From assembly GCA_002683135.1 (NCBI GenBank), contig NYSS01000182.1, forward strand, positions 14,005 through 78,004: a DNA stretch of 64,000 nucleotides, read 5' to 3'. Origin of the DNA: Planctomycetota bacterium. GTDB taxonomy: Bacteria > Planctomycetota > GCA-002687715. Below, piece by piece: positions 2,220 through 61,818 of the stretch. The notes under the pieces are model-generated. The model did not search any database and was not told the DNA's origin. It saw nothing but the letters and a program-made list of their open reading frames with translations. The number at the start of each line of letters is the position of its first letter. The first letter of the stretch is position 1. The position numbers and the translations under genes were made by a program.

Positions 2220-2297
2220 TTGACATTCGTGCGCACAAATATTAATATTGATAACAGTTACAGCGCACCTCGGCTTAGTCAGGGGTAGGAAAAGACC
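2220..2297 (+). promoter_or_regulatory. class-A promoter/operator + PK leader
   Basis: TTGACA 2220-2225, GTGCGCAC 2229-2236, TAATAT 2243-2248. PK S1 AGC 2262-2264/GCT 2273-2275; S2 ACCTC 2267-2271/GGGGT 2282-2286. 11 nt to ATG. Confidence 0.8.
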
Positions 2298-2840
2298 ATG
2301 GATTTTGAAACACTCACAAAGCTACTTGAAACCGGCAAAGAAACAGTTGCAGTTCGTCTTATCAATGATTTTAGTGTGCACAACGAATTTGCGCATATTA
2401 CTCTGCAGGTGGTTCATGTTGCTAAAACCGGCAATTACGATACTTTTGGTTTCTACGATAACTATTACGGCCAAAAGCACCAATATCGCGGCCTGAAATT
2501 GACCTGCCAAATGGATTGGCGTCAAAATAAAACCTATGGCTTTCATATTGGAATATCACCAAAGACTGACCTTATTTCATTAGAAGAAGCTGAAACATCT
2601 CTCAAAGTCCTTCGAACCATTAATCGTAAAATGTTAAAGATGATTCATAACGAAGGCCATACTGATGATTTCAGTGAGTATGCCATGCGTTTTTGTCGTG
2701 CAATTAATGCAAAAGCGTTTTATCACAACATTGATGGTAATAGAGCCCAATCTATAAACCACAATATCGGTTTACTACGTTCTGAGCTTGATATCGCAAT
2801 TAAAACCAACTTGGCAACCTGGGCCTCAAGAGCGGCTTAG
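2298..2840 (+). CDS. hypothetical protein (180 aa)
   Basis: Track ORF directly after an A-module. Confidence 0.7.
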   Translation: MDFETLTKLLETGKETVAVRLINDFSVHNEFAHITLQVVHVAKTGNYDTFGFYDNYYGQKHQYRGLKLTCQMDWRQNKTYGFHIGISPKTDLISLEEAETSLKVLRTINRKMLKMIHNEGHTDDFSEYAMRFCRAINAKAFYHNIDGNRAQSINHNIGLLRSELDIAIKTNLATWASRAA

Positions 2841-2863
2841 CCGATTACGGTAGAATTATGAGA

Positions 2864-2890
2864 AGCCTTGCACTAAGCAAGGCTTTTTTT
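2864..2890 (+). terminator. rho-independent terminator
   Basis: AGCCTTGC-actaa-GCAAGGCT followed by T7. Confidence 0.7.
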
Positions 2891-2975
2891 GATTCATAAA
2901 AAAATATAAACCTATTAAAACTAATGTTTTATGTCTAATTAAGGCATTTAACATTATTTTAATGCTCAATAAGTA

Positions 2976-3090
2976 TTGCTTGATGATGAATAAAATATAT
3001 ACTATGTGCATAGCTAAGGCGGTCTCTCGTTAAAACTATGTGTGTTGTGTTTTCCTTGACTTTAATCCGGCTTCACGCCGGATTTTTTTT
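2976..3090 (+). ncRNA. candidate small RNA / decayed leader module
   Basis: TTGCTT 2976-2981, N16, TATACT 2998-3003, then about 80 nt with no credible ORF, ending in terminator ATCCGGC-ttcac-GCCGGAT+T8 (3065-3090). The 5' part CATAGCTAAGGCGGTCTCTCG resembles the leader with S2a deleted. Confidence 0.25.
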
Positions 3091-3104
3091 AACTAAATTT
3101 CGCC

Positions 3105-3182
3105 TTGACATTCGTGCGCACAGATATTAATATGACTATTAATTAAGGCGCACCTCGGTCCATTCAGGGGTAGGAAATACAA
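3105..3182 (+). promoter_or_regulatory. class-A promoter/operator + PK leader
   Basis: TTGACA 3105-3110, GTGCGCAC 3114-3121, TAATAT 3128-3133. S2 ACCTC 3152-3156/GGGGT 3167-3171. Confidence 0.8.
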
Positions 3183-3722
3183 ATGCAAAACATACATTCT
3201 ACAGCTTTACAAACAGCCATCATGCCAATCCTATCGAGTTCGCGTGCTTTGAATAATTTAAAAGTACTGATGTCTTCTTTGAATATTGAATCAGCCGTCA
3301 TAGAAAAAGGTGACTTTGGCGCTAAAATCACAAATCTTAAGGTTAAAGATGACTTTGACGTTACGTGTAAAGCAAATGTGCTAGCATTCGTGAGTATTGC
3401 TAATCAATATCTCGCGCACTACATGCCTAGCCCATTGTGGGCCTCGAAAGTAAAAGCATCGGGTGGTAAAAAGAAGCAGAATATCTCCGACTTTTTAAAT
3501 GATATCAAAGCGTGTGAAGATTTCATGAGTGCACTTAATCGCTATATAGACGCAGATCTCCTCATGATTTATTTTGAATATACAGGCCTAGATAACTCCC
3601 TACCGCTACCAGGTATTGTCGAGACATGTTTTATTAATATACCGATTAGTGCTTTATGGGATGCCTGCAATGATATTAAGACCAACATCATTCCAAAAGC
3701 GAGACACCTGGCCGCGCAGTAA
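3183..3722 (+). CDS. hypothetical protein (179 aa)
   Basis: Track ORF; ATG lies 11 nt after the PK. Confidence 0.7.
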   Translation: MQNIHSTALQTAIMPILSSSRALNNLKVLMSSLNIESAVIEKGDFGAKITNLKVKDDFDVTCKANVLAFVSIANQYLAHYMPSPLWASKVKASGGKKKQNISDFLNDIKACEDFMSALNRYIDADLLMIYFEYTGLDNSLPLPGIVETCFINIPISALWDACNDIKTNIIPKARHLAAQ

Positions 3723-3817
3723 ATTCTTTAGGTTATACGCATGCTTGTTCGATTATCATCAGCAGGCCACCTAATTTTGTAAAGGCTCAAATTTAGGTCG
3801 TTTGCACATCGATAAAA

Positions 3818-3841
3818 TGCATATATGATATTATGTATGCA
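3818..3841. promoter_or_regulatory. inverted repeat TGCATA-N12-TATGCA in promoter region of 3861 gene
   Basis: Dyad 20 nt upstream of the ATG. Similar TGCATAA/TTATGCA dyads occur at 9867-9890 and 27416-27439. Confidence 0.3.
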
Positions 3842-3860
3842 GCATTAATGAGGCCGATTT

Positions 3861-5260: not shown

Positions 5261-6082
5261 CTAAGCAGCGAGTTCGTCAAACGTCTCAAAGAACTTACTT
5301 TCCAGTTCACTAAACTCGATCACCTGGTAGTCATCTGTATAGCGTTCTACATTATCGTGAAGATAAGTACTAATGAAATCAGAAAACCCATTGTCTAAAC
5401 CAAATTTGAATTGGTCCGTTCTCCATTTATTACCATTGGTATCAACAATACGTTGTCCATTTCCATCACTAATAAATTTTTCAGCTGTCACGACATCTCC
5501 GTAAACAGGGGAGTATGCATTTTCAACATCATTTCTTAACCACGGACGAAACTTTGTACCCGGTCTAATACGAACAAATACTGAATTTTCCAGCCTGCCT
5601 GAAGGTGTTTTTCCGAAGAAAAAGATATCTAAATAGTTCGGTTCAAGTGCCTTTAAAGCGCTCGCTAAGAAGCCACGTTGGGAGCCAATACCGGCGCCTG
5701 CTGGTGGAACTGTTAATTCAATCAAAGCATTGTCTTCATTAATCATTGACGTCAATGCGTTTAAATACAATTTCGGCAAACATGTAATTATTCTTGTAGG
5801 GTTAAGTTTTCTAATTAATGCGTTTGCCTTACGCGCATTGCTCTTGATAAAACCTTCCATTGCATCCTTTTCTAACTTCTGTTCATAGGGCTCAATCATT
5901 TCATTAGCGTGAATTAATCCGTACTTAGCAGATAGGATCGCCAAATCATAATCAATACCAACGGATGCCGTAGATTTTGACAATAAAGGAAGGTATCCCT
6001 TTCCTTGATAGAGATTAATCGCTCTGGCAGGAACAGAAAGTTTTTCTTGGGAACAAGGCAATATGATAAGTGGTTTTTGCAT
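5261..6082 (-). CDS. hypothetical protein (273 aa)
   Basis: Track ORF; ATG lies 11 nt after a minus-strand PK leader. N-terminal ILPCSQEK motif; family not confidently recognised. Confidence 0.7.
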   Translation of the reverse strand: MQKPLIILPCSQEKLSVPARAINLYQGKGYLPLLSKSTASVGIDYDLAILSAKYGLIHANEMIEPYEQKLEKDAMEGFIKSNARKANALIRKLNPTRIITCLPKLYLNALTSMINEDNALIELTVPPAGAGIGSQRGFLASALKALEPNYLDIFFFGKTPSGRLENSVFVRIRPGTKFRPWLRNDVENAYSPVYGDVVTAEKFISDGNGQRIVDTNGNKWRTDQFKFGLDNGFSDFISTYLHDNVERYTDDYQVIEFSELESKFFETFDELAA

Positions 6083-6157
6083 TTGTATTTCCTACCCCTG
6101 AAATGCCGAGGTGCACAATAATGATAACAATATTATTTATGTGCGCACGAATGTCAA
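6083..6157 (-). promoter_or_regulatory. class-A promoter/operator + PK leader (minus strand)
   Basis: Plus-strand coordinates: TGTCAA 6152-6157 (= -35 TTGACA), GTGCGCAC 6141-6148. PK S1 6115-6117/6104-6106 (UGU:GCA); S2 GAGGT 6108-6112/ACCCC 6094-6098. Confidence 0.8.
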
Positions 6158-6200
6158 GTCTTTATATTTTAAAAAGTACTTAAAAATAATCATTTTTCCT

Positions 6201-6277
6201 TTACTTCTGTGCGCACATATATTAGTATTAATAAAAGTTAAGACGCGCCTCGGTCAGTCAGGGGTAGGAAAGAAACC
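6201..6277 (+). promoter_or_regulatory. class-A promoter/operator + PK leader (divergent partner of 6083-6157)
   Basis: TTACTT 6201-6206, GTGCGCAC 6209-6216, TAGTAT 6223-6228. S2 GCCTC 6247-6251/GGGGT 6261-6265 (G.U closing pair). Confidence 0.8.
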
Positions 6278-6877
6278 ATGCCACACGCTATCATCGCAAA
6301 TGAAAATTACGCAGTCATCGACGTTAAACTCGCTATCGCTGAAACCAACGGTGACAATATCGCAGACGGCTTAAATGAACTATTTCGCGAGCATTTAGAC
6401 AAAGACTTCATCGTCGATTACATGTTCAGTAATACCGACGAACCTTGCATAAAAACATCATCAAGAGAGCCATCTGAAGGCGAACTCTTTGAAGAAATTC
6501 GATTTGGTTGCCGAGAGTTAAAAACACTAAGCGCGGCTGTGCACTTCTTTCATTCAGAACTTGCTTGTCATGACTTCGAGGACCTTCCAATCGGCATGAT
6601 TGTAGATACCGCTTCATTAACAATCATGACCAACAAATTTTGGAATCTAGGTAGGGCGCTACATGACATTAGCCGGTTTGCAGATCAATCTGATGCACAA
6701 ACAACACCGTCTCTTTCGCAGGAAGAAAAAACAACGATGAAATACACAATCAATCATTTCATAAATTCAATTGATTCTGAAAGCAAGACGACACTGACGG
6801 ATGGCGATAACGATGTGATCCTCAATAAAGCTGCTCTAGAACAACTGAAGGCCAAACTTCAAATATTGTGTAACTAA
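6278..6877 (+). CDS. acidic hypothetical protein (199 aa)
   Basis: Track ORF; ATG lies 12 nt after the PK. Confidence 0.7.
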   Translation: MPHAIIANENYAVIDVKLAIAETNGDNIADGLNELFREHLDKDFIVDYMFSNTDEPCIKTSSREPSEGELFEEIRFGCRELKTLSAAVHFFHSELACHDFEDLPIGMIVDTASLTIMTNKFWNLGRALHDISRFADQSDAQTTPSLSQEEKTTMKYTINHFINSIDSESKTTLTDGDNDVILNKAALEQLKAKLQILCN

Positions 6878-6886
6878 TAAGTATAT

Positions 6887-6920
6887 GACGCGCCTCGGTC
6901 ATCAGGGGCAGGTTTTTATC
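6887..6920 (+). promoter_or_regulatory. PK leader only (intercistronic)
   Basis: GAC 6887-6889; S2 GCCTC 6892-6896/GGGGC 6905-6909. No promoter hexamers. 11 nt to ATG 6921. Confidence 0.7.
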
Positions 6921-7397
6921 ATGCAATCTAGTGCAATCATAATAAAGCCAATGACGGAAACAGAGAACCTGTTAGCCAACCTTTCGTTAGTAATAGAGCT
7001 CAACCAAAAAGTGAGCATGAGTGATTTAAACTTCACTGCTGTTTTCATTAAAAATGGTGATAGATTTTATCCGTTGGCAATAGACCCTAATACGTTGTCA
7101 TCAAGAAAAATAAAAGGAGGCCGTTATCAATTCCTCTGCAAGTTTTCTTACCAAATGGATGAAGTAAGAAGCTTCTTTCAAATCTTCTTTAGTGGGAATT
7201 TCCACTTTGTTCTAGATTCATCAATCTTAAACAGTATTGATTCAACAGCCTACATCAACATTGTTGGTTATGAACATAACACCAAAGTAGATGAGGCTTT
7301 AGGTGATATATACCTTACACTGGACGATACTAGCGAATACATGTCTCTAAATTCACTTGAACATCACGTAAACGTGGTGAACGACAAAACCCTTTAA
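6921..7397 (+). CDS. hypothetical protein (158 aa)
   Basis: Start moved from track 6885 (inside the leader) to ATG 6921. Confidence 0.65.
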   Translation: MQSSAIIIKPMTETENLLANLSLVIELNQKVSMSDLNFTAVFIKNGDRFYPLAIDPNTLSSRKIKGGRYQFLCKFSYQMDEVRSFFQIFFSGNFHFVLDSSILNSIDSTAYINIVGYEHNTKVDEALGDIYLTLDDTSEYMSLNSLEHHVNVVNDKTL

Positions 7398-7414
7398 TAT
7401 CGGAGAACGACATT

Positions 7415-8170
7415 GTGAAGTTTATTACAGTCTTATTTACTCTGCTGGTGGCATCAAACACCACGCTTGCTCAAGATACTTGGCGTGGATTGATTATTGC
7501 TCCTGAAAATCGCTGTTCGCCTTATGATAAAAAATCTCAATACCCTTACCCACAGTCAGTAGAGGATATTGTTGTTGCCAATATGGGTGGAATTGTATAT
7601 GGTCCATACACTGGAAGAATATTCGAAAATGACAGAAAAACCGATATAGAACATATACTTAGTACAAGTGAAGGGCACGATAGCGGCTTGTGTGCAGCAT
7701 CACCTGAAGTAAGAAAACAGTTCGCTATCGATCCGCTTAATCTTACATTGGCGGCACCCGAAGTTAACCGTTGCAATCCTGGCGGCAAATGCGGGTTTGA
7801 TGCCGCAGAATGGATGCCTGAGAAAAACCAGTGCTGGTTCTCTAACCGTATTGTTGAAATTCGACAAAAATACAAATTAACAATTGATATTAATGAAGCT
7901 CGGACGCTGGAAAATACTTTAAGAAATTGCGAGAGCTTTGAAATGATAATGTTTGAAGGCAGACCAGTTCAGGGTGATTTAAATGCGATATCAAACGTGC
8001 AGGTGCCAAATATTTCGCTAAAAAGTGCATTAACGCTTTATGATGATAATGGAAATGGAAAGATCACTTGTAAAGAAGCACGAGCCCACGGCATCGCGCC
8101 GGTCACCCAAGACCACCCTGCCTATCAGTATATGTACGATCCAGATAAAGACGGCGTTGTCTGCGAATAG
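7415..8170 (+). CDS. secreted DUF1524/His-Me-finger-type nuclease with C-terminal Excalibur Ca-binding domain
   Basis: N-terminal signal peptide MKFITVLFTLLVASNTTLAQ; TDIEHILS...DPLNLTLAAPEVN...WMP motifs; C-terminal DDNGNGKITCKE...DPDKDGVVCE. GTG start. Confidence 0.6.
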   Translation: MKFITVLFTLLVASNTTLAQDTWRGLIIAPENRCSPYDKKSQYPYPQSVEDIVVANMGGIVYGPYTGRIFENDRKTDIEHILSTSEGHDSGLCAASPEVRKQFAIDPLNLTLAAPEVNRCNPGGKCGFDAAEWMPEKNQCWFSNRIVEIRQKYKLTIDINEARTLENTLRNCESFEMIMFEGRPVQGDLNAISNVQVPNISLKSALTLYDDNGNGKITCKEARAHGIAPVTQDHPAYQYMYDPDKDGVVCE

Positions 8171-10259: not shown

Positions 10260-11666
10260 TTACCCCCAAGGAATGTTAAGTCTATCCATGTCGGCTTTAT
10301 TAATTTGCGTTGTGCCGTTGATCGTTCTCATTACTGCTTGTGCTTCGTCACTTGATAGAAATTCGACAAGTGCTTTTCCTTCGACTTCCGACAGTGGCTC
10401 GCCCATTTTATGAATGTACTGTACGTGATTTTCTAAAGCCACTACATCGTCATCTATAGTTGCCCTAGACAACCAGGCTGGCATTAAGCGTTTAGGTTCA
10501 TCGCCATCATTACTAGAAATTCTTTTCAATACTACGTAACCACCTGACGTCGGTAAACTAAGTCTATTCTTACTGTTTGTTTCTAAAAATCGAGGTTTCT
10601 TTTTCTCGCCCCAGGTCCAGTTTCCGGCATTATCAAAGTCAGAAGAATAAACAATTTTTGTTGTAAGGTGACCACTTTGTCGATGTAGCTCAAGTTTACC
10701 CGTACTCAATCTGTATCCGGCATCAGGAAATGTCCTATTGCGCTTCTGATTTTTGAGGTAAAGATGGATATCTTTCACTGTCCTTGGTAGCGACCAATGT
10801 GATTCGTTTAGAATATCTGCTGAAGGCAGCACTAAATCGTATTCAGGCTTAGAGTCTGGATCTTTTGCCACCGTGATACGAATGCGGCCAACCTGCTTAC
10901 GTTTACGTGCATAGAAGAGGATATTTTCTTGTAAAACGTTTTTGAAGCACGAACGAGATTTGTATAGTGTAATGTGTTCAATACTAAGATTTTCCATCAG
11001 AAATTTACGGAAATCCTTAAAATAAGCGCCTGAACAAAAGCTGCGGGGTAACACCGCAAGTAAATGCCCATCATCAGCAACCCATTTAGCGGCTAGCACC
11101 ATAAATGCTGAGTACAAATTGGGTGACGATATACCATGTTTCTTTAGCAATAAAGAAAGAGGTTCTTTACTGCTTAGTTTATTGTAGGGTGGGTTAGTGG
11201 TAATAAAATCCGGTTTCGAAAGCCCGTCAATCTCCCCACGCTCTAATAAACTCTTTGCATGTACCGTGAAATCACTTTGTATTTCGTAGTCAGAATTTGA
11301 TTCTGCTTGAGATGAGAAGAACGACCAAGCTCTACTTAAATCATCATGCAATCTTTGATCTGTTTCAAAGCCGTATATGGAAAAATGTTTCGATAAATTT
11401 TGGTTTTGAAGTCTGCTCGCAAGAGCGGCTGATAGAATACCTGTCCCGGCACCTGGGTCACCTATAACTGATTTTGCTGAAACATTTGGAGAAGACATTA
11501 CAGATAATTGGACTGCCATCGACAATGGCGTGAAATGTTGCCCTCTCAATTTCTTTTCTACAGGGCTCGTTGCATTTCTCCAATAATCACTATTGGAATC
11601 TATTCTTGCTAAGAGTTCAGAGTATTCATCTTTACAGACGCTATTACTGACAAGGTTGTATTTCAC
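10260..11666 (-). CDS. N6-adenine DNA methyltransferase (Eco57I/N6_Mtase-like), orphan
   Basis: Motif I GDPGAGTGIL, motif IV TTNPPY. GTG start 11 nt after the PK leader. No adjacent nuclease. Confidence 0.8.
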   Translation of the reverse strand: MKYNLVSNSVCKDEYSELLARIDSNSDYWRNATSPVEKKLRGQHFTPLSMAVQLSVMSSPNVSAKSVIGDPGAGTGILSAALASRLQNQNLSKHFSIYGFETDQRLHDDLSRAWSFFSSQAESNSDYEIQSDFTVHAKSLLERGEIDGLSKPDFITTNPPYNKLSSKEPLSLLLKKHGISSPNLYSAFMVLAAKWVADDGHLLAVLPRSFCSGAYFKDFRKFLMENLSIEHITLYKSRSCFKNVLQENILFYARKRKQVGRIRITVAKDPDSKPEYDLVLPSADILNESHWSLPRTVKDIHLYLKNQKRNRTFPDAGYRLSTGKLELHRQSGHLTTKIVYSSDFDNAGNWTWGEKKKPRFLETNSKNRLSLPTSGGYVVLKRISSNDGDEPKRLMPAWLSRATIDDDVVALENHVQYIHKMGEPLSEVEGKALVEFLSSDEAQAVMRTINGTTQINKADMDRLNIPWG

Positions 11667-11749
11667 TGTATTTTCCTACCCCTGACTGGACCGAGGTGCA
11701 TCGATATAAAACTATATTACTACTTTTTATTTGTGCGCACAAATTTAAT
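11667..11749 (-). promoter_or_regulatory. class-A promoter/operator + PK leader (minus strand)
   Basis: GTGCGCAC 11733-11740; ATATTA 11714-11719 (= -10 TAATAT). S2 GAGGT 11693-11697/ACCCC 11678-11682. Weak -35. Confidence 0.7.
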
Positions 11750-13693: not shown

Positions 13694-14142
13694 ATTTAAA
13701 ATCACCAAAACGGTGAAACATTTTTATCGATATCCGTGCTACGCACCTCTATCATTTAAAATCACCTAATGCGGTGACTCACTTAGCATGATTAAAGTCT
13801 CTCAAATGTGATTTCTTCTAAATCACCTATGCGGTGACTCACTTTATCGGTATCTTTCACGCTTATTTTTGCAACTTCTAAATCACCTATACGGTGACTC
13901 ACTTAGCATGATTAAAGTCTCTCAAATGTGATTCCTTCTAAATCACCTATGCGGTGAATCACGTGTGCTTTACTTCAGTTAATGAAGGCATGCACTTCTA
14001 AATCACCTATGCGGTGAATCACACGCTTTAGCGTTGAAAGCGTTATCTTTAATTCTTTTAAATCACCTATGCGGTGACTCACGTATTACAATAACTCGCG
14101 ACGCAACGCCGATTCTTCTAAATCACCTATGCGGTGACTCAC
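13694..14142 (-). CRISPR. CRISPR array: 8 repeats (6 canonical 28-nt, 2 degenerate distal) and 7 spacers (six of 32 nt, distal one 33 nt)
   Basis: Canonical repeats end at 13842, 13902, 13962, 14022, 14082 and 14142 (60-nt period). Minus-strand repeat GTGAGTCACCGCATAGGTGATTTAGAAG has type I-F-like architecture. Degenerate repeats 13694-13720 and 13754-13782 lie distal to the AT-rich leader. Confidence 0.95.
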
Positions 14143-14940: not shown

Positions 14941-14943
14941 TGG

Positions 14944-16059: not shown

Positions 16060-16065
16060 TTCCGC

Positions 16066-17531: not shown

Positions 17532-17608
17532 GTTGCTTGACCATAATTGAAGATTAATCTAAGGTTATTCTCATGAATTTATAAAGTCAACTCCATAGGA
17601 ATGAACTT

Positions 17609-20139: not shown

Positions 20140-20221
20140 TTGCATTGTGTGCGCACATAATATAATATAAACACATAGCAACGACGCACCTCGGTCACCA
20201 TTCAGGGGTAGGATAATAAAA
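20140..20221 (+). promoter_or_regulatory. class-A promoter/operator + PK leader
   Basis: TTGCAT 20140-20145, GTGCGCAC 20149-20156, TAATAT 20163-20168. S2 ACCTC 20188-20192/GGGGT 20205-20209. Confidence 0.8.
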
Positions 20222-22012
20222 ATGTTCTCAATCAAGAAGACAAAACTTCATAAAGCACTGGCACATGCATTAGGCAACCTTGAAGCGCTAACTAAGCGCT
20301 TAAAAGTCATGCAAGAAAGCCCGGACAGCCCACGCAAAAAAATTGTTATTTCTACTAAAGAGCTTTACGTATCATCACTTGGTGAAGGCACTAAAATGGT
20401 GGTAGAAGCACATAGTGACAAGTCTGCGCTCTTTATTCGACCAGCAACATTGTCTGACGGGAAAACACGTGTTGTATCTAAGCGTACCTATAAGAACCGT
20501 GATTACGTCGAGCCTGTTGTTGACATTCGTCACCAGCGCGACATTAATGCCACCATCGGTGATGCTGAATACGTACATGTAACGTTTCAAAAAGACGGAG
20601 CATGGGTTCGACCAGCAACCAAATATCAAGAAATCGCGCTTAAGCATCCATCAGGTGCTCACTTTGATATGACCATGCCAGATGAAGAGGGCCTTTACTC
20701 GCAGATATTAAAGGCGATTAAAATCACAAAGCAATCACACTTTTCATCAATCATCCTAAATACCTCTGATGATTTCTTACATTCAAAGGAATATGTCATT
20801 TTATGTGTGCAATTACGCCGACTCGGTTTCGATATCAAAGAAACAAACAACCTTGTATACGCTAAGCTCCCGCGCTCACCTGAGTTAGATAGTCACGAAT
20901 ATATCGATTTAGCGAGATACAACTACAAAACCAGCTTCCAGAGCATGGCCACACGCTTTAACTTCAATGAGCCGCTATCTACCTTTGCCGCATGTACTGC
21001 TGGCGTTGATATTCATGCCATGGAGAACGAAGGTTTTAAAACCACCAGCATTCTCGAATACCGTCCACCTGAGAAGCGTGATTTTAAAAAATCAGTTGAT
21101 AAAGTATCGGGTGAAACGGTGATCAAACACAACGACAAAACCGATACAGGTGCATTGTGCGCACTGTTAAACAGTAAGCATGCAAAAGTGGTATTCAACG
21201 AAGATATCTATGAGTTTGATTTTTATCGAGTCAGTCATTTATTGCCTGATTTCAATCATTTACATATAAGTGTGCAATGTGATGACTTTACTAATATGAA
21301 ATCTAATTCGTTAAAAGATAATAGCATTGACGATTTAAGTACAACCATTGACATGTTCATCCCAGCCCTTGAATTAGCGGACATGACAAACACGCCGACT
21401 ATGCTGGTGGAGAATGTAGTGAACTTCGGCAAATCAATTGAATGTCGCTTACTCTCCACTGGATTAAAGTGGTTGGGGCATGAAGTAAAAACGCATAATT
21501 ATAATGCTGCTGACTTTAATGGCATGACTAAGCGTGTACGTACTTACCTATTTTCTTCACAATTAGGTTTAGATGACATCAAAGCAACACCAGTAGCTCG
21601 ACGAGCCCATGCATGGAATGATGTTATTGCCCCTCGGTTAAATGAACTGCGCGACGTAACGCACTGCAAAACCATTCAGAAGGGCATTGATACCGGCCGT
21701 ATTCGTGTTATCAACGTGGGTGATGCTATTGTGCCAACTATTGTGAAATCACAATCTAGACAGGTGAAAGACAGCGTGTATGTCTACATGAATGGACGCT
21801 ATTACATGCCATCAAATGACATGCTAAAAGCGCTGATGGGCATTCCTGCTGATTTTAATACCGCGCCATTTAGCGAAGAAATTACGAGCGAAATCACAGG
21901 GCAGAGCATTGAATACCCGATGCATCAAGCTATTTGCGAAAAGGTTAAACAGCACATCTACCGGTTCGTGAAATCGTTTTTTGGCCTAAATATGTTAACC
22001 GTGCAGGCCTGA
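20222..22012 (+). CDS. DNA cytosine-5 methyltransferase-like protein with ~240-aa N-terminal extension
   Basis: C5-MTase motif order is recognisable: I FAACTAGVD, IV SVQCDDFT (QC instead of PC), VI LVENV, VIII KRVRTY, X GQSIEYP. Confidence 0.45.
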   Translation: MFSIKKTKLHKALAHALGNLEALTKRLKVMQESPDSPRKKIVISTKELYVSSLGEGTKMVVEAHSDKSALFIRPATLSDGKTRVVSKRTYKNRDYVEPVVDIRHQRDINATIGDAEYVHVTFQKDGAWVRPATKYQEIALKHPSGAHFDMTMPDEEGLYSQILKAIKITKQSHFSSIILNTSDDFLHSKEYVILCVQLRRLGFDIKETNNLVYAKLPRSPELDSHEYIDLARYNYKTSFQSMATRFNFNEPLSTFAACTAGVDIHAMENEGFKTTSILEYRPPEKRDFKKSVDKVSGETVIKHNDKTDTGALCALLNSKHAKVVFNEDIYEFDFYRVSHLLPDFNHLHISVQCDDFTNMKSNSLKDNSIDDLSTTIDMFIPALELADMTNTPTMLVENVVNFGKSIECRLLSTGLKWLGHEVKTHNYNAADFNGMTKRVRTYLFSSQLGLDDIKATPVARRAHAWNDVIAPRLNELRDVTHCKTIQKGIDTGRIRVINVGDAIVPTIVKSQSRQVKDSVYVYMNGRYYMPSNDMLKALMGIPADFNTAPFSEEITSEITGQSIEYPMHQAICEKVKQHIYRFVKSFFGLNMLTVQA

Positions 22013-22032: not shown

Positions 22033-22115
22033 TTGAATTTCGTGCGCACATAAAATAATATAAGTAAATACCAACGACGCACCTCGGTCATTCATTCAGG
22101 GGTAGGATAATAATC
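22033..22115 (+). promoter_or_regulatory. class-A promoter/operator + PK leader
   Basis: TTGAAT 22033-22038, GTGCGCAC 22042-22049, TAATAT 22056-22061. S2 ACCTC 22081-22085/GGGGT 22099-22103. Confidence 0.8.
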
Positions 22116-22532: not shown

Positions 22533-22534
22533 TC

Positions 22535-22903: not shown

Positions 22904-22936
22904 CCACGATTACAAGAATGAATTAGGTCAAAGCAG

Positions 22937-23221: not shown

Positions 23222-23249
23222 GTGAATATCATCAACGAGGTTTACTCAA

Positions 23250-23678: not shown

Positions 23679-23693
23679 GCGGGTGGACTTTCT

Positions 23694-23984: not shown

Positions 23985-24056
23985 TTTCTAAAAGGAAATT
24001 TGTCTGCATACTTAGCAGATGTGTGAAACTTGTTTTTACCAGTAGAGGTAGATGTA

Positions 24057-25895: not shown

Positions 25896-25971
25896 TTGAA
25901 ATGTGTGCGCACATATACTAAAGTAAACACATCAACGACGCACCTCGGTCATTCAGGGGTAGGAAGAAAAC
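25896..25971 (+). promoter_or_regulatory. class-A promoter/operator + PK leader
   Basis: TTGAAA 25896-25901, GTGCGCAC 25905-25912, TAAAGT 25919-25924. S2 ACCTC 25942-25946/GGGGT 25956-25960. Confidence 0.75.
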
Positions 25972-28704: not shown

Positions 28705-28782
28705 CTTGCTTTTGTGCGCACACTTTTTTATTATAAATAACAGTTACGACGCACCTCGGTCTTTCAGGGGTAGGACAACCAC
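28705..28782 (+). promoter_or_regulatory. class-A promoter/operator + PK leader
   Basis: CTTGCT 28705-28710, GTGCGCAC 28714-28721. S2 ACCTC 28753-28757/GGGGT 28767-28771. Confidence 0.75.
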
Positions 28783-29054: not shown

Positions 29055-29090
29055 GACGCTCCTCGGTCTCTCAGGGGTAGGAAGTAAACC
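29055..29090 (+). promoter_or_regulatory. PK leader only (intercistronic)
   Basis: GAC 29055-29057; S2 TCCTC 29060-29064/GGGGT 29074-29078 (U/U at the closing position). 12 nt to the ATG. Confidence 0.65.
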
Positions 29091-31568: not shown

Positions 31569-31645
31569 TTGATTTCTGTGCGCACATATTATAGTATATT
31601 CATCAGTTACGACGCACCCCGGTCAATCAGGGGTAGGAGATTATT
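31569..31645 (+). promoter_or_regulatory. class-A promoter/operator + PK leader
   Basis: TTGATT 31569-31574, GTGCGCAC 31578-31585, TAGTAT 31592-31597. S2 ACCCC 31616-31620/GGGGT 31630-31634 (U-to-C turns the wobble into a Watson-Crick pair). Confidence 0.8.
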
Positions 31646-32441: not shown

Positions 32442-32520
32442 TTGATATCTGTGCGCACATAATTTAATATAAACACATCAACGACGCACCTCGGTCTAGT
32501 TCAGGGGTAGGAAAATAACC
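32442..32520 (+). promoter_or_regulatory. class-A promoter/operator + PK leader
   Basis: TTGATA 32442-32447, GTGCGCAC 32451-32458, TAATAT 32465-32470. S2 ACCTC 32488-32492/GGGGT 32504-32508. Confidence 0.8.
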
Positions 32521-38229: not shown

Positions 38230-38309
38230 GTTGGTTTCCAACCCCTGAACTAGACCGAGGTGCGTCTTTAGATGTAATTTATATTAATTTGTGTGCGCAC
38301 ATAAGTCAA
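38230..38309 (-). promoter_or_regulatory. class-A promoter/operator + PK leader (minus strand)
   Basis: AGTCAA 38304-38309 (= -35 TTGACT), GTGCGCAC 38293-38300, ATATTA 38281-38286. S2 GAGGT 38257-38261/ACCCC 38241-38245. Confidence 0.8.
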
Positions 38310-40233: not shown

Positions 40234-40311
40234 GGCATGTGTCCTACCCCTGAAATGACCGAGGTGCGTCGTTGATGTGAATATTATAATTTATGTGCGC
40301 ACATAAATCAA
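40234..40311 (-). promoter_or_regulatory. class-A promoter/operator + PK leader (minus strand)
   Basis: AATCAA 40306-40311 (= TTGATT), GTGCGCAC 40295-40302. S2 GAGGT 40261-40265/ACCCC 40246-40250. Confidence 0.8.
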
Positions 40312-42047: not shown

Positions 42048-42124
42048 GATAAATTCCTACCCCTGACTAAGCCGAGGTGCGCCGTGTTAATGATAATAAT
42101 AATTTCCGTGCGCACATAAGTCAA
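42048..42124 (-). promoter_or_regulatory. class-A promoter/operator + PK leader (minus strand)
   Basis: AGTCAA 42119-42124, GTGCGCAC 42108-42115. PK S1 42081-42083/42070-42072 (GGC:GCU); S2 GAGGT 42074-42078/ACCCC 42059-42063. Confidence 0.8.
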
Positions 42125-46371: not shown

Positions 46372-46450
46372 AATTAACTCCAACCCCTGAATGGTGACCG
46401 AGGTGCATCGTTGATGTGCTTATAATAATTTACGTGCGCACGAAAAGCAA
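46372..46450 (-). promoter_or_regulatory. class-A promoter/operator + PK leader (minus strand)
   Basis: AAGCAA 46445-46450 (= TTGCTT), GTGCGCAC 46434-46441. S2 GAGGT 46400-46404/ACCCC 46383-46387. Confidence 0.8.
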
Positions 46451-48703: not shown

Positions 48704-48786
48704 ATGTTTTATCCAACCCCTGATAGTGTGACCGAGGTGCGTCGTAGGTATGTACTAACATTATTATTTGTGCGCACAAATATCAA
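48704..48786 (-). promoter_or_regulatory. class-A promoter/operator + PK leader (minus strand)
   Basis: TATCAA 48781-48786 (= TTGATA), GTGCGCAC 48770-48777. S2 GAGGT 48734-48738/ACCCC 48716-48720. Confidence 0.8.
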
Positions 48787-49353: not shown

Positions 49354-49752
49354 TTATGCGCGTTGATATTCGACGTAAATCATGAAACTTCCGTTATCCA
49401 ACGGGGTAGGCAATACACCATAACCAGATACAATACAACCGTTTAATAACTTGTATTCACCATTAACAAGTGACTGATAGGTTTTGCTTTGCATAGCTCT
49501 TGATTCACTACTAAAGCCTTTACCGGATGATGCTACATGTATTTGTGACACTTTATTGCAAACGTTTAATACGTTATACATTTCACGCATAAGCCATTGC
49601 GATGCCACCTGCTTGGGGTTTTTATAGCCGCGGCCAACAATACTGCTTGGTTTTGTCTGACCATTCATCATGCGGTCATAATCGTCTTTAAACGCAATGA
49701 ACTTTGGATCGTCTTTGGTAATGATTGATTGCTTAACTGTTTGCATTGTCAT
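49354..49752 (-). CDS. hypothetical protein (132 aa)
   Basis: Start moved from track 49788 (inside the leader) to ATG 49752, 11 nt after the PK. Confidence 0.65.
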   Translation of the reverse strand: MTMQTVKQSIITKDDPKFIAFKDDYDRMMNGQTKPSSIVGRGYKNPKQVASQWLMREMYNVLNVCNKVSQIHVASSGKGFSSESRAMQSKTYQSLVNGEYKLLNGCIVSGYGVLPTPLDNGSFMIYVEYQRA

Positions 49753-49852
49753 GAAAATATCCAACCCCTGAAAATGGTCGAGGTGCACCGTGTTTGTTTA
49801 TTCGTTGTATCCAACTTAATAGTAATTATACATACCTATTAGATATGGTCAA
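49753..49852 (-). promoter_or_regulatory. class-B promoter + PK leader (minus strand)
   Basis: Minus-strand reading: TTGACC-N16 (ATATCTAATAGGTATG)-TATAAT (plus 49847-49852, 49831-49846, 49825-49830). PK S1 49787-49789/49776-49778 (GGU:ACC); S2 GAGGT 49780-49784/ACCCC 49764-49768. Confidence 0.7.
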
Positions 49853-50276: not shown

Positions 50277-50280
50277 AAAT

Positions 50281-51048
50281 ATGAAAGTATTTACAACCAG
50301 CATAAACGATTTAAATGCAGATCTATCTCTATCGCCACATGACTATGTGAAATTACATGAAGAGTCGCGAGTAGCGTATTGGCGAAGACTTGAAAGATTG
50401 TACCGATGCGATCACTTACCTCATCTTATTTGCGAATATCTCGATATCACAAGTAAGCAATTTGTTGATGATCTGAAAGCGTTGTATGACAAAGGGATTG
50501 TATTAAGTAACGATACCCGTAAAGAGCGTGATTTTGAGTCTAGGACGCCACCTTCAAAACTCAGTAAAGTTGAGTATCAACGACTTATTGATGATGAGAC
50601 CTTCTATTCATCTAAAGGAATATCAATAATTGATACATGTAGGTTGATGATGATTACATTGTCACGGTGGAAACATCTTGAGAATGCGAAGCCCAGGCCT
50701 AAGCCGATTGATACTGCAGCCAGAAATAAAGCAATTGTTGAAATTTTCTCAAATACTGAAAATAAGCGGGGCCTCAAATCCAGAATTGCATCATCGTTCG
50801 GTATATCAAGGAAGATGATTGATCTGATATTGGAAGACAATGGCATTAATTCAACAGTAGGCGCCAGAAAGCAACGCGTGCACGTTCCGACAAGTAAGAA
50901 GCAGTCAATTATTGATTGCTATGATGAGAACATAAAAAATGGTACCCCGGAGTCCAAAATCGTTGGAAATATCGCCCGGACATTAGAGTGCACAACAGGT
51001 TACGTATACAAAGTCCTTAAAGAAAATGACAAAAAAAAGCCCACATAA
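50281..51048 (+). CDS. hypothetical protein with HTH-like segments (255 aa)
   Basis: ATG 50281. IASSFGISRKMIDLILEDNG and IARTLECTTGYVYKVLKEN resemble resolvase-type HTH motifs. Weak call. Confidence 0.45.
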   Translation: MKVFTTSINDLNADLSLSPHDYVKLHEESRVAYWRRLERLYRCDHLPHLICEYLDITSKQFVDDLKALYDKGIVLSNDTRKERDFESRTPPSKLSKVEYQRLIDDETFYSSKGISIIDTCRLMMITLSRWKHLENAKPRPKPIDTAARNKAIVEIFSNTENKRGLKSRIASSFGISRKMIDLILEDNGINSTVGARKQRVHVPTSKKQSIIDCYDENIKNGTPESKIVGNIARTLECTTGYVYKVLKENDKKKPT

Positions 51049-51637: not shown

Positions 51638-51717
51638 TTGACAACTGTGCGCACGGAATATATTATCTTTAAAAGACTTTGATGCACCTCGGTCACCACT
51701 CAGGGGTAGGAAAAACC
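51638..51717 (+). promoter_or_regulatory. class-A promoter/operator + PK leader
   Basis: TTGACA 51638-51643, GTGCGCAC 51647-51654, TATTAT 51661-51666. S2 ACCTC 51686-51690/GGGGT 51703-51707. Confidence 0.8.
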
Positions 51718-52373: not shown

Positions 52374-53041
52374 ATGAATAACACTGCACTTTCATTACCA
52401 TCGCATAGCAAACTACCCGCTCGCTTTGCAAATATGCTATCGACCCCATCAGATTCAAAAGTTGAACAATTGTGGTGGCAGTTCAGAGGTCAAGAAGAGT
52501 CTCTGAACAAGACCCACGAGATGATAAATAGCCCCAGCACCAAACTATCCATTTCTCTATTGCTCAGAAGTTCACTAAAAGATCTCAATGAGCCAATTAA
52601 TTGTTCATTATTTGGGTCGTCGTTAGAAAATGCGAAAAAATTCTTCAACAGCAGTATTGGGAGAAGGCTATAGATTTAACTGATGTTAAATTTCACATGC
52701 CTAATAACAGACGTATTGAGTGGAGGGAAAACGTAAAAGCCTTTAATTTCCCTGATTTCACCCTAGAGAACCTTTTTTCTACGTTATCAACCTTACTGTT
52801 AGAGCGCGACAAATTCATAGCAGAGCGGGTGGAGGGCGTATTTAATGCGTTATCGAAGTCTCACGTTACTAATACCCCAGAAGGTTTCTATAAAAGGATG
52901 ATCATTAGTGATATTCATAGAGATGGTTTTCCTTGTTCGACACGTTGCGGTTACATCAACGATCTTCGAATTGTAGTCGGACGGTTCTTAGGACGTGAAA
53001 ATGATAATGTGGTGAGTTCCTATGATCTCTTAATCGTTTAA
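52374..53041 (+). pseudogene. N-terminal (DUF4942-like) part of a methyltransferase gene, interrupted by a frameshift
   Basis: Reading ...SSLENAKK switches to ILQQQYWEKAIDL... only if one A is added to run A6 52635-52640. Track ORFs 52338..52673 and 52601..53041 overlap by 73 nt. Confidence 0.5.
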
Positions 53042-54006
53042 TGCAGCACACTGGTCAATGGGTAGAGATTGATGGCGGTACTTTACGTATCCGTGTCTAC
53101 AAAAAAGGGACTGCGCATATTGAGGTACACCCCGATATCGCTTGGCAATTAAATGAGATCTTAGCCATGCTTTACCCGCGTGCTATTCCTTCTCAATTTA
53201 GAACCAAACAAAAGAAAAAAATAAAACACGTTAATTTGTCAAATACGTTGCTTAATCATGACGTTATTAACGAGCTAGGACAAATTCAACCCGCCTACGA
53301 AATGAAAGGCAAACCTGGTTTTAACCTATCCCGTGGTAACAAAATAGAAAATCGGGTAACACCTCGATATCCGTTTTCTATGGACAAACACTTGTTAGCC
53401 AAAGTAAGCGACGTTCTTATCGCCATCGGCGGGATAGCATTAGAAAACCATGAGTTTCAGTTTGACTATGATCCCATGCCTATCATAGAGCAAGTATACT
53501 TTGAAGGACGTATCCCAGATAAGTACAGCCATCAATTTTATCCAACACCGGCACCCTTAGCTAAGAGAATGGCCGATCTATTGGGCAATGTACAAGGTCT
53601 ATTACTAGAACCCGAAGCCGGGCAGGGCGCATTAGCAGAGTATTTAGGTAAAGATGCAACGCTGGTGGAAGTATCATCCTTGCATTGCGAAATTTTAAAG
53701 CAAAAAGGCTTTAAAAACGTCATATGTGATGACTTTATCAAATGGGCACATAAAACAGTTAAGACAAATACACGCTTTGCAGGGATTCTAATGAACCCGC
53801 CTTTTTCGGAGGGGCGTGCAGTTCATCATTTGGATGCTGCAATTTCTCTTCTTGCTGACAAAGGTAAGATAGTTGGATTGGTAACATTGCCTGTAGCGAA
53901 TAATTATTATGCAGAGGGAATGAGCAAACAAATCACACCGGTCGCACAAAAAGAATTTAAAGGTGTCAGTGTAGATCTGGCCATCATTGAACTAAGCAAA
54001 CTGTGA
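53041..54006 (+). CDS. SAM-dependent N6-adenine/N4-cytosine DNA methyltransferase module
   Basis: Motif I LLEPEAGQGALA, motif IV LMNPPF. ATG overlaps the previous stop (TAATG). Confidence 0.65.
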   Translation: MQHTGQWVEIDGGTLRIRVYKKGTAHIEVHPDIAWQLNEILAMLYPRAIPSQFRTKQKKKIKHVNLSNTLLNHDVINELGQIQPAYEMKGKPGFNLSRGNKIENRVTPRYPFSMDKHLLAKVSDVLIAIGGIALENHEFQFDYDPMPIIEQVYFEGRIPDKYSHQFYPTPAPLAKRMADLLGNVQGLLLEPEAGQGALAEYLGKDATLVEVSSLHCEILKQKGFKNVICDDFIKWAHKTVKTNTRFAGILMNPPFSEGRAVHHLDAAISLLADKGKIVGLVTLPVANNYYAEGMSKQITPVAQKEFKGVSVDLAIIELSKL

Positions 54007-56436: not shown

Positions 56437-56517
56437 TTTACTTTTGTGCGCACGAATAATATAATGAACACATCTCAAGACGCGCCTCGGTCACCATTCA
56501 GGGGTTGGAAATTAGTT
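56437..56517 (+). promoter_or_regulatory. class-A promoter/operator + PK leader
   Basis: TTTACT 56437-56442, GTGCGCAC 56446-56453, TATAAT 56460-56465. S2 GCCTC 56484-56488/GGGGT 56501-56505. Confidence 0.8.
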
Positions 56518-57207: not shown

Positions 57208-57288
57208 TTGATATTTGTGCGCACGAATAATATGATAAATACATCTCAAGACGCACCTCGGTCATACCATCAGGGGTTGGAATTAACC
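57208..57288 (+). promoter_or_regulatory. class-A promoter/operator + PK leader
   Basis: TTGATA 57208-57213, GTGCGCAC 57217-57224, TATGAT 57231-57236. S2 ACCTC 57255-57259/GGGGT 57273-57277. Confidence 0.8.
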
Positions 57289-59827: not shown

Positions 59828-59908
59828 TTTACTTTTGTGCGCACATAAAATAATATAAACACATAGCAAAGACGCACCTCGGTCACCATTCAGGGGTAGG
59901 AAAAAACA
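59828..59908 (+). promoter_or_regulatory. class-A promoter/operator + PK leader
   Basis: TTTACT 59828-59833, GTGCGCAC 59837-59844, TAATAT 59851-59856. S2 ACCTC 59876-59880/GGGGT 59893-59897. Confidence 0.8.
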
Positions 59909-60326: not shown

Positions 60327-60361
60327 GACGCGCCTCGGTCATTCAGGGGCTGGTAAATACA
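60327..60361 (+). promoter_or_regulatory. PK leader only (intercistronic)
   Basis: GAC 60327-60329; S2 GCCTC 60332-60336/GGGGC 60346-60350. Preceded by hairpin AAGGG-ataca-CCCTT at 60301-60315. Confidence 0.7.
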
Positions 60362-60658
60362 ATGAAAAATGCAACTACGGCAGCAAAGCTACCTCGAATT
60401 AATGTTACTCACTTTATTGCTGGTGGTATTTCAGAAATCTTTGAATCAGAAGTGCTAGTCGATAACGAAGACCGTTTAGAAGTAGTAACAACGCAATCAA
60501 GTATTCTTTCTGAGCAGAATAAACAAATCATTTCTGACTATGTTCGCAGCTGCCAGGGAGAGGACGAGGACACCAACGAAGAGCTGGCAGAATTTTTTAA
60601 CGGGCTAGACAAAGACTGCAGCATTCCTACGCTTTTTTATTGGGATTCAGAAGCGTAA
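60362..60658 (+). CDS. acidic hypothetical protein (98 aa)
   Basis: Track ORF after a PK leader. Confidence 0.7.
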   Translation: MKNATTAAKLPRINVTHFIAGGISEIFESEVLVDNEDRLEVVTTQSSILSEQNKQIISDYVRSCQGEDEDTNEELAEFFNGLDKDCSIPTLFYWDSEA

Positions 60659-60689
60659 ATTTTTTAATATCCTCAAGGAAACCCATCAT

Positions 60690-60947
60690 ATGACGCTAGA
60701 ACATTTATCAGCAATGCCACCTGAACAGGTAATGCAGTGGATTAAGGCTCATAAAGGAAGCTTTACGTTAGTACCAAATGTACCGAGTCATGAATTTTTG
60801 AGTACCTTTATTTTGCATATGCCTGCAGCAATGGATCAAACGACAGCTGATGCAGTGGCTAAACAATACTGCGAATATCATGAAGAAGTTATAGAGTCCA
60901 CTAAACAGCACTTTTCATGTGTTGATGAATCTATTGAGTCTAATTAA
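60690..60947 (+). CDS. hypothetical protein (85 aa)
   Basis: Track ORF with AAGGAA RBS. Confidence 0.55.
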   Translation: MTLEHLSAMPPEQVMQWIKAHKGSFTLVPNVPSHEFLSTFILHMPAAMDQTTADAVAKQYCEYHEEVIESTKQHFSCVDESIESN

Positions 60948-60973
60948 TAAATAACACTTACTTAGGGAGCCTT

Positions 60974-61192
60974 ATGAATAAAAGTACAAAAGCGGCCTTG
61001 CTAGTATATGCCACACCATTTTTGGCTATTTTCGGCTTAGAACTGCTCATGTTTTTTTATGTAAAGCCTATGGTACTGGAAAAAGTGCCTTCTGCTGGCA
61101 ATTTATGGCAGTTCCATGTTCTCGGTATAGCTATCATAATTGGTCTTTGGTATCCCATTAGAAAGTGGATATATAAAGATTTGATGAAATAA
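60974..61192 (+). CDS. small membrane protein (72 aa)
   Basis: Two hydrophobic segments; GGGAG RBS. Confidence 0.55.
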   Translation: MNKSTKAALLVYATPFLAIFGLELLMFFYVKPMVLEKVPSAGNLWQFHVLGIAIIIGLWYPIRKWIYKDLMK

Positions 61193-61220
61193 CAATATTA
61201 AGCCGACAGGAGAATGTTCT

Positions 61221-61424
61221 ATGGCTAACAAAATCAGACCTTTTGGCATTTACAACATTAATCCTGCGAGTATTTCGCCTTCAGGGTATGATGTTGCGGA
61301 TTGCCAAGATCTGCTTCCAAAAGGAGAGCGGATCAGAAACAAGAAGTTAAAGCGCCGTAGACATAATAAAATGGCGCGTGTTGCAGCTAAGCAGGCTTTA
61401 TATAAAGAACTGATAGTGGCTTAA
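61221..61424 (+). CDS. small basic protein (67 aa)
   Basis: KKLKRRRHNKMARVAAK; AGGAG RBS. Confidence 0.5.
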   Translation: MANKIRPFGIYNINPASISPSGYDVADCQDLLPKGERIRNKKLKRRRHNKMARVAAKQALYKELIVA

Positions 61425-61444
61425 CTCTTAGTGAGGAATTCAAA

Positions 61445-61603
61445 ATGATTAAAGAATTATTGGAAATAATTGAGGCACAGCGAGAGTATATTGACGCCTT
61501 GCCTGAATCAGTGGTTTCGACGTTACCAGTTATGCCCGGTCACGATAGAGATTGGGCTGACGAGGTAATTTATGCTGCTAAGAAGTCCTTGGACGACAAA
61601 TAA
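61445..61603 (+). CDS. small protein (52 aa), absent from ORF track; paralog of C-terminus of 39267..39635
   Basis: ATG 61445 with GAGGA RBS; about 70 percent identical by eye to residues 72-121 of the 122-aa protein. Confidence 0.6.
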   Translation: MIKELLEIIEAQREYIDALPESVVSTLPVMPGHDRDWADEVIYAAKKSLDDK

Positions 61604-61736
61604 CCGGTCATTAATCAGTATATCATTCGGGTATAAAAATACGGCAACCTTCACAATAGGTTTTACTTTAGTTCCATAGATATCGTGAACTAGTGATAAA
61701 AATTACGAAAAAAGTGGTGAAAGAGATAAATAAATG

Positions 61737-61818
61737 TTGATTTCTGTGCGCACACACAGTAATATAAACACATAGCAAAGACGCACCTCGGTCACCATTC
61801 AGGGGTAGGACATTAACC
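61737..61818 (+). promoter_or_regulatory. class-A promoter/operator + PK leader
   Basis: TTGATT 61737-61742, GTGCGCAC 61746-61753, TAATAT 61760-61765. S2 ACCTC 61785-61789/GGGGT 61802-61806. Confidence 0.8.

Follow-up and report, generated by a model that had tools for sequence, protein, structure and literature searches.

The window analyzed here is a 64,000-nucleotide stretch of contig NYSS01000182.1 (positions 14,005 to 78,004; assembly GCA_002683135.1, deposited as a Planctomycetota bacterium). The window shares 98% identity with pKD01, a 336-kb plasmid of Alteromonas macleodii, and 87% DNA identity with the 302-kb MRG65-300 of A. mediterranea; it lies in a 90-kb sector of an Alteromonas megaplasmid of the conjugative type. 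In this window, 21 promoters carry the same 8-bp palindrome, GTGCGCAC (here, O1), between their -35 and -10 hexamers. O1 is probably the operator of one twofold-symmetric DNA-binding protein, whose binding at this place would exclude RNA polymerase and make the promoters a regulon that is switched as one. Protein binding, the negative sign of the regulation, its timing, and the identity of the repressor are what we infer from this arrangement.

O1 occurs 22 times in the window, whereas dinucleotide-preserving shuffles yield 0.53 copies on average and 3 at most; an earlier reading of the bare DNA (here, the sequence-only reading) had roughly estimated less than one chance copy per 64 kb. It ranks first by count among all 256 8-bp palindromes of the window, which has a G+C content of 38 to 41%; the runner-up among palindromes with four or more G/C bases has 6 copies. 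If up to one mismatch is allowed, the total rises to 32 sites (15.4 expected), just 10 beyond the exact copies. Thus, there is no halo of degenerate sites, and the word is either perfect or absent. The 10-mer TGTGCGCACA is found in 12 sites, and the base before O1 is a T, and the base after it an A, in 16 of the 21 promoters each. The sequence-only reading had counted 21 copies, all intergenic. This is correct for the 21 copies that lie inside the 17-bp spacer of sigma70-like promoters directed at genes, but a 22nd copy lies inside an open reading frame (ORF).

The 21 promoter copies share a common context, namely, an A-rich tract, a -35 hexamer (TTGAnn), 3 nt, O1, 6 nt, and a -10 hexamer (TAnnAT). 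The claim that this geometry is fixed stands for 19 of the 21 promoters, which have a 17-bp spacer; as exceptions, the -35 hexamer lies one base closer at 28714, and both hexamers are poor at 11733. In the fixed register, the mean match is 4.4 of 6 to TTGACA and 4.0 of 6 to TATAAT (1.6 and 1.8, respectively, at random positions), and at least 8 of the 12 hexamer bases match in 18 of the 21 promoters but at only 0.6% of random positions. With hexamers 17 ± 1 bp apart and facing a gene, the O1 promoters look like promoters of the sigma70 type. Fourteen of them are on the plus strand and 7 on the minus strand, and a start codon (ATG or GTG) follows all 21 at a distance of 65 to 75 nt. The back-to-back promoters 6141(-) and 6209(+), which drive divergent genes, and the leader subfamilies AAACACATAGCAAMGACG and AACACATCAACGACG are as the sequence-only reading had described them. 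That reading took the repeat to be a promoter, but the repeated unit is larger, a cassette of about 95 bp composed, in this order, of the A-rich tract, a near-consensus sigma70 promoter with O1 in its spacer, a short variable leader, a predicted pseudoknot ending in the Shine-Dalgarno sequence (ribosome-binding site), and the start codon (Table 1). Almost all transcription units of the 90-kb sector begin with this cassette.

Across nine syntenic promoter pairs of the window and MRG65-300, O1 is identical at 72 of 72 positions, whereas identity is 74% in the -35 hexamer, 83% in the -10 hexamer, 70 to 81% in the spacer flanks, and 48% in the upstream DNA. O1 is therefore more constrained than the hexamers that RNA polymerase contacts, and it appears to be under stronger purifying selection than these. 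In all 21 promoters this perfect dyad lies between the -35 and -10, and in the syntenic pairs it is conserved beyond its neighbors, as would be expected of an operator. A metagenome scan for O1 together with the leader turned up true cassettes on marine contigs, those of Tara Oceans among them. In distant metagenomic elements, O1 is still found inside the 17-bp spacer, at offsets of 0 to 7 nt from the -35 hexamer. Thus, it is the location within the polymerase footprint that seems to matter and not a given helical face, which fits occlusion and argues against MerR-type activation.

The place of O1 may be taken by other dyads. (i) A second palindrome, O2 (TATCTAWTAGGTA; also given as TAYCTAWTAGGTA), is present in the spacer of two window promoters (330+ and 49845-). 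In pKD01 it occurs once only, before the orthologue of gene 49354-49752. In MRG65-300 it precedes the orthologue of 29091-29492, at a position syntenic with the window's O1 promoter of gene 28783, which itself has no match in MRG65-300; in L119, O2 lies at about 19700 (L numbers are our handles for loci and contigs outside the window). (ii) ATTGTACGTACAAT is the spacer palindrome (O3) of the same promoter-leader design in A. antoniana. (iii) TCGTGTACACGA, which is O1 with the central CG changed to TA, exists in AT-rich contigs; within a 20-kb stretch of L195, 11 of its 12 sites are 3 nt before the -10 hexamer, and with 11 sites it is the top 8-mer palindrome of L224. The replacement of one dyad by another at the same place is the appearance expected of a changed repressor specificity. 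Taken together, the operator-like position in the core promoter, the selection on O1, its retention in the spacers of relatives, and the dyad swaps lend support to the earlier placement of the palindrome as a repressor operator. The further proposal of a single-repressor regulon is supported in part: one operator is shared by 21 promoters, but a single repressor can only be inferred from it, and two window promoters belong to the O2 class. O2 could represent a second regulator or a two-repressor switch.

A parallel regulon was observed in unrelated AT-rich metagenomic elements (27 to 38% G+C), namely, L195 (Ga0535681_0000170), L224/L225, L194, and L126. Its promoters have the form TTGnnn-6-GTGTACAC-3-TATAAT, with up to 12 near-identical copies per 20 kb, and are followed by a different, ordinary leader. 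Contigs with GTGYRCAC promoter spacers include CEUP01047106.1, CEWF01050304.1, OJBB01000088.1, and Ga0535681_0000170.

About 28 to 30 nt past O1, all 21 promoters have a conserved leader, NNN-G-CACCUC-G-NNN-loop(3-10)-CA-GGGGU-WGGA, which is followed by 5 to 9 nt and ATG. There are 24 leader copies in the window (e.g., 2262-2290, 20183-20213, and 29055-29082), including three without O1, of which one is inside an operon (29059) and two follow the O2 promoters (330+ and 49845-). Between them, this plasmid family and unrelated replicons supplied 69 distinct leaders for comparison. A first stem can form between the base triplet that precedes the invariant G and the triplet that follows CG, with pairing at the three positions in 69, 68, and 64 of the 69 leaders, and compensatory changes are many (at the middle pair, A-U, 41; G-C, 15; C-G, 7; G-U, 5); when the partner is shifted by one base, this pairing collapses. 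The second stem (ACCUC/GGGGU) is nearly invariant, which is partly an effect of the search pattern, as this prescribed most of the bases, and its rare variants still pair (CACCCC/GGGG, CCUC/GAGG, and, in L222, CGCCUC/GGGGC). The leader is thus predicted to fold into a compact H-type pseudoknot with the Shine-Dalgarno sequence at its end, and the 5' strand of its second stem equals the 3' end of 16S ribosomal RNA (the anti-Shine-Dalgarno sequence).

A search of Rfam gave no match at the gathering score in the whole window, none at an E value of 10 or below on two cassettes, and none on Marinobacter or Patescibacteria loci bearing the leader. Copies of the leader stand ahead of small genes and of genes for DNA methylases in Marinobacter, Rheinheimera, an Enterovibrio plasmid, other Alteromonas, Dechloromonas, and Rhodanobacteraceae; several genomes of Patescibacteria and 25 viral contigs of IMG/VR have it in such a place too. 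Leader-bearing loci outside the window, which include L021, L079, L102, L118, and L197-L221, are thus found in Gamma- and Betaproteobacteria, Patescibacteria, and viruses. On L102, a “Candidatus Nomurabacteria” contig, a match to the type III hammerhead ribozyme (6764-6817, minus strand) lies about 500 bp from the pseudoknot leader; it is below threshold (36.9 bits versus a gathering score of 48.5; E = 9e-5).

pKD01 contains a Dot/Icm-type transfer system (type IV secretion system), type IV pili, two rep genes, metal-resistance transposons, and a type IV-A CRISPR (clustered regularly interspaced short palindromic repeats)-Cas locus. A phage origin of the window was rejected because no similarity was found in INPHARED; tRNA genes are absent from the window. 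pKD01 has 33 O1 sites; the stretch from 216 to 306 kb holds 32, and the leader comes after 27. The sole site outside the 90-kb sector is isolated, at 145.8 kb, and apart from it the transfer and metal-resistance parts have no O1 sites. Among the plasmids of PLSDB, the cassette is present only in pKD01 and MRG65-300, at 26 and 23 places, respectively. According to our gene map, about 80 of the approximately 110 plausible genes of the window lie downstream of an O1 promoter. Those with an annotation encode an N6 methylase, a protein with a weak C5-methylase match, a methylase-like protein, an AbiEii toxin, a GHKL-type ATPase, a DUF6884 protein, and GNAT acetyltransferases, and many others encode small proteins with an isoelectric point (pI) near 4 and no annotation. 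The CRISPR-Cas genes, a RES-Xre toxin-antitoxin pair, and an Mrr-like nuclease gene are outside the O1 units. The methylases and the many proteins of pI ~4 are compatible with an establishment or anti-restriction program.

If O1 is an operator, its cognate protein would be sequence specific and probably plasmid encoded. Its presence between the -35 and -10 hexamers would exclude RNA polymerase by steric repression, and about 21 promoters and about 80 genes of the window, and at least 27 promoters in the whole plasmid, would be switched together. In an established host, tight silencing of the 90-kb block would be expected, with a burst of expression on entry into a repressor-free cell or on inactivation of the repressor.

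The sequence-only reading had named four small proteins as candidate DNA binders, none of which gained support from Pfam, PHROG, or PDB searches; PDB sequence searches were empty for all four. (i) 27125-27415 has the look of a tandem ribbon-helix-helix protein by eye but was rejected, since its AlphaFold2 (AF2) model was poor (predicted local distance difference test [pLDDT] score of 64) and Foldseek gave nothing significant. (ii) 39619-39903 matches just a PHROG of unknown function. (iii) For 43458-43745, a homologue (72% identity) was found on a contig of A. salexigens with one O1 site of its own. (iv) 50281-51048 (ORF 50266-51048, plus strand) shows a weak match to a “late transcriptional activator” PHROG (E = 8e-4), has no Pfam domain, and has three homologues. 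ORF 50266-51048 encodes a basic protein of 260 amino acids and adjoins an O2 promoter. Several segments resemble a helix-turn-helix by eye (e.g., IARTLECTTGYVYKVLKEN), and the protein is 100% conserved in pKD01 and 58 to 60% identical in two other relatives, one of them on L222. Ranking of proteins by conservation against MRG65-300 was abandoned as a means of picking the repressor, because the candidates are 73 to 84% identical and do not stand out.

A fifth protein, encoded by gene 49354-49752 (132 amino acids; pI 9), is our lead. It is the first gene after an O2 promoter. Homologues with 56 to 64% identity, retrieved by protein similarity alone, are found on AT-rich contigs on which no other window protein has a detectable match, and all those contigs carry GTGTACAC in promoter spacers (5 to 12 copies each in L195, L224, L196, and L225, two in L194, and one in L226). 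Tara contig L137 has a homologue (38% identity) as the first gene of an O1 promoter pair arranged back to back. When eight sampled contexts (about seven contigs), all chosen around this gene, were compared with one another, no other family was present in more than three contexts, with the exception of an ORF family that overlaps 49354-49752 on the opposite strand and was taken as shadow ORFs. Too few residues of the family track the operator type (O1 or O1') to be of use. That this family binds O1 is a tentative suggestion, in which we have low confidence.

Several results weigh against the operator reading or against this lead. With 20 small or basic proteins as queries, Pfam and PHROGs returned no DNA-binding family other than an Xre-like antitoxin and a DUF6088/AbiEi-like protein, both of toxin-antitoxin pairs, the other matches being to GNAT and Mrr, apart from the weak PHROG match of 50266-51048 given above. 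Neither of two AF2 models (27125-27415 and 49354-49752) has a recognizable DNA-binding fold, and the model of 49354-49752 (pLDDT, 84.5) matched nothing in the PDB or BFVD. In this plasmid, the promoter of 49354-49752 carries O2 and not O1. Moreover, weak profile matches place the N-terminal part of its product inside very large mobile-element proteins, so that an injected effector fits as well as a regulator. For a dimer of a helix-turn-helix protein, a palindrome of 8 to 10 bp with no central spacer would be unusually short; a ribbon-helix-helix protein suits it better. Finally, a generic promoter scan of the window found 38 promoters where 59 were expected and missed most cassettes; as its yield is not enriched in DNA as AT rich as this, the promoter call depends on the fixed geometry and not on the scan.

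A different source of the binder would also count against a plasmid repressor. It might be a chromosomal regulator of the Alteromonadales host, and the plasmid sector would then be plugged into a host signal. We consider this unlikely: no plasmid candidate has been confirmed, and O1 occurs on several otherwise different marine contigs, as a host factor would allow, but the operator type differs within the genus (O3 in A. antoniana versus O1 in A. macleodii and A. mediterranea), and O1 and O2 are both present within one plasmid.

It is about equally unlikely that O1, which holds GCGC and TGCGCA, is an epigenetic switch, methylated by an orphan methylase of the plasmid, with the methylation state setting promoter activity after transfer, either alone or via a binder. 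Methylase genes are at hand, as the regulon drives the N6-methylase gene, the gene with the weak C5-methylase match, and the methylase-like gene; a further three cytosine methylases are annotated in pKD01, of which two lie within the O1 sector or beside it, and the sole intragenic copy of O1 is in the C5-methylase-like gene. However, pKD01 contains GCGC 825 times (792 outside O1) and TGCGCA 88 times, with no depletion and no link to promoters outside O1. The conserved unit is 8 to 10 bp long, the sister operator GTGTACAC is devoid of a CpG core, and other palindromes at the same position are AT rich. The lack of depletion also led us to reject restriction-site avoidance around GCGC and TGCGCA. 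An epigenetic role as an overlay on O1 regulation is possible.

Because MerR-family activators also sit on a dyad between -35 and -10, and because our searches yielded no repressor, an activator or a factor that remodels RNA polymerase (by MerR-like spacer binding or sigma appropriation) has to be considered as the ligand of O1. This is improbable, as the spacer has the optimal 17 bp and not the 19 to 20 bp that mark MerR targets, the near-consensus hexamers make an activator unneeded, and the variable O1 offset in relatives is hard to square with helix-face-specific remodeling. That O1 has no function of its own and owes its conservation solely to the recent origin of the cassettes as copies of one repeat, multiplied by duplication and recombination, is most improbable: the cassettes do form subfamilies with common leaders and are exchanged between orthologous positions, but the hexamers, flanks, and upstream DNA diverged while O1 did not, O1 is kept in metagenomic elements with little or no detectable shared protein-coding content in the stretches compared, and one-mismatch copies are not in excess.

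A literature search on GTGCGCAC as an operator, or on promoters of Alteromonas megaplasmids, returned nothing relevant. The logic of the O1 regulon is known from other elements (KorA/KorB, ArdK/CUP, R388, and P1 C1), while its scale and its cassette are new. In IncP-1 plasmids (RK2/RP4), plasmid repressors on identical palindromic operators at many promoters coordinate large parts of the backbone; in RK2, KorA sites (7) overlap the -10 hexamer, whereas KorB sites (12) are upstream or distant. O1, in contrast, is in a fixed register inside the spacer, at 27 to 33 sites, and before accessory or unknown genes rather than those for replication, partition, or transfer. The IncP-1 operators OA (GTTTAGCTAAAC) and OB (TTTAGCSGCTAAA) have no match in the window or in pKD01. 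Thus, the O1 regulon is not a KorA/KorB system, and the earlier comparison to KorA/KorB-type logic with another sequence is apt as an analogy. In P1, one repressor, C1, acts at many dispersed operators of a plasmid-like replicon, and these operators are asymmetric 17-mers. The Arc operator of P22 lies between -35 and -10 of Pant, where Arc blocks open-complex formation; Arc controls a single promoter region. No homologue of C1 or Arc was detected.

In the IncN plasmid pKM101, the self-controlling plasmid repressor ArdK binds repeated, promoter-bearing CUP elements before several genes, including leading-region anti-restriction genes (PMC6289460, citing Delver and Belogurov, 1997). The CUP copies of pKM101 number a handful and have a 13-nt ArdK core, whereas there are 21 to 33 copies of an 8-bp perfect palindrome here, and the two are not known to share sequence similarity. 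Among the 20 proteins scanned, no helix-turn-helix regulator family, including ArdK-like ones, was matched besides the toxin-antitoxin antitoxins. To our knowledge, CUP elements have no pseudoknot leader. In the IncW plasmid R388, plasmid repressors acting in negative feedback keep strong promoters shut, and expression surges after transfer (PMC3937220). R388 has six repressors for about 15 promoters on 34 kb, whereas one operator dominates a 90-kb sector here; feedback and overshoot are features of R388. The O1 regulon is distinguished by a minimal 8-bp perfect palindrome locked in the spacer, 27 to 33 copies over a 90-kb accessory block, a fused pseudoknot leader, and variants in unrelated marine elements.

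Table 1. Promoter cassettes, leaders, and related features of the window (coordinates are positions in the window)
Feature	Coordinates	Strand	Remarks
O1 cassette, TTGACA-ttc-GTGCGCAC-aaatat-TAATAT and pseudoknot leader	2220..2290	+	Drives 2298-2840
O1 cassette	3105..3175	+	Drives 3183-3722 and genes downstream
O1 cassette, half of back-to-back pair	6090..6157	-	Drives 5261-6082 (DUF6884)
O1 cassette, half of back-to-back pair	6200..6269	+	Drives 6278-8170
O1 cassette, poor -35 and -10	11674..11749	-	Drives N6-methylase gene 10260-11666 and three more genes
O1 cassette	20140..20213	+	Drives 20222-22012 (weak C5-methylase match)
O1 cassette	22033..22107	+	Drives 22116-25212, including AbiEii toxin gene
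O1 cassette	25896..25964	+	Drives 25972-28669
O1 cassette, -35 shifted by 1 nt	28705..28775	+	O2 promoter in its place at the syntenic position in MRG65-300
O1 cassette	31569..31638	+	
O1 cassette	32442..32512	+	Drives 32521-34146 (HATPase_c_3) and genes downstream
O1 cassette	38237..38309	-	
O1 cassette	40242..40311	-	Operon holds candidate 39619-39903
O1 cassette	42055..42124	-	
O1 cassette	46379..46450	-	Drives operon of about 12 genes, from 46371 down to 42139
O1 cassette	48712..48786	-	Drives 48242-48703
O1 cassette	51638..51711	+	Operon includes methylase-like gene 53041-54006
O1 cassette	56437..56509	+	
O1 cassette	57208..57281	+	
O1 cassette	59828..59901	+	
O1 cassette	61737..61810	+	
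O2 cassette, TCGACA-17-TAGAAT, with palindrome TATCTATTAGGTA (330-342) in spacer and the same leader	322..423	+	Drives 432-767
O2 cassette, TTGACC-16-TATAAT, with TATCTAATAGGTA (49833-49845) in spacer and a leader variant	49753..49852	-	Drives 49354-49752
Pseudoknot leader without promoter, inside operon	29055..29082	+	Before 29091-29492
22nd copy of GTGCGCAC	21157..21164	no strand	Intragenic, within ORF 20222-22012, without promoter context
Lead gene for the putative repressor	49354..49752	-	Only protein family to co-occur with GTGYRCAC spacer-operator promoters in unrelated elements

Other parts of these plasmids are organized differently. Between 73 and 98 kb, pKD01 has another block of unknown genes, consisting of some 70 very small ones in the same orientation, without O1 and without the leader; this block is under a control other than O1 and the leader. 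The window and pKD01 differ at window positions 1-2200 (pKD01, 244.1 to 246.6 kb), where pKD01 has a cytosine-methylase gene (244135-245334) and the window has other small ORFs and an O2 promoter, as judged from the coordinate offset and ORF sizes and not from an alignment. The window plasmid and pKD01 are thus not the same isolate. The type IV-A CRISPR array at 13815-14142, which adjoins the csf genes (14239-20104), has a 28-nt repeat (CTTCTAAATCACCTATGCGGTGACTCAC) and 32-nt spacers, two of which are nearly identical (aligned units, 96% identity). Silencing of the sector through self-targeting by this array was excluded at the level of spacer matches, since the best match in the window is 22 of 32 bases, which is the chance level.

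In the most far-reaching interpretation, GTGYRCAC spacer-operator promoters would be an undescribed and widespread control system of marine mobile elements, with the orphan-fold family of about 125 amino acids (49354-49752) as its repressor and O2 wiring a two-repressor switch of a 90-kb establishment/anti-defense sector, and the pseudoknot leader, with a second stem that copies the Shine-Dalgarno/anti-Shine-Dalgarno helix, would be a new translation-control RNA of plasmids, phages, and Patescibacteria. As a whole, we regard this as doubtful. The leader, being present across phyla and without an Rfam match, may prove a more general discovery than the regulon. The parallel regulons, in which unrelated AT-rich elements use an operator that differs by one dinucleotide, amount to a natural specificity-swap experiment. 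The sector itself is almost entirely unannotated, and its many orphan methylases and small acidic proteins have the profile of anti-restriction or anti-defense cargo; the regulon thus marks a large candidate reservoir of such genes. If one protein does silence about 30 strong promoters and at least 100 genes, O1 would be a portable, ready-made, and very tight regulatory part, and its repressor would be a master switch of the cost of the megaplasmid and of its establishment after transfer.

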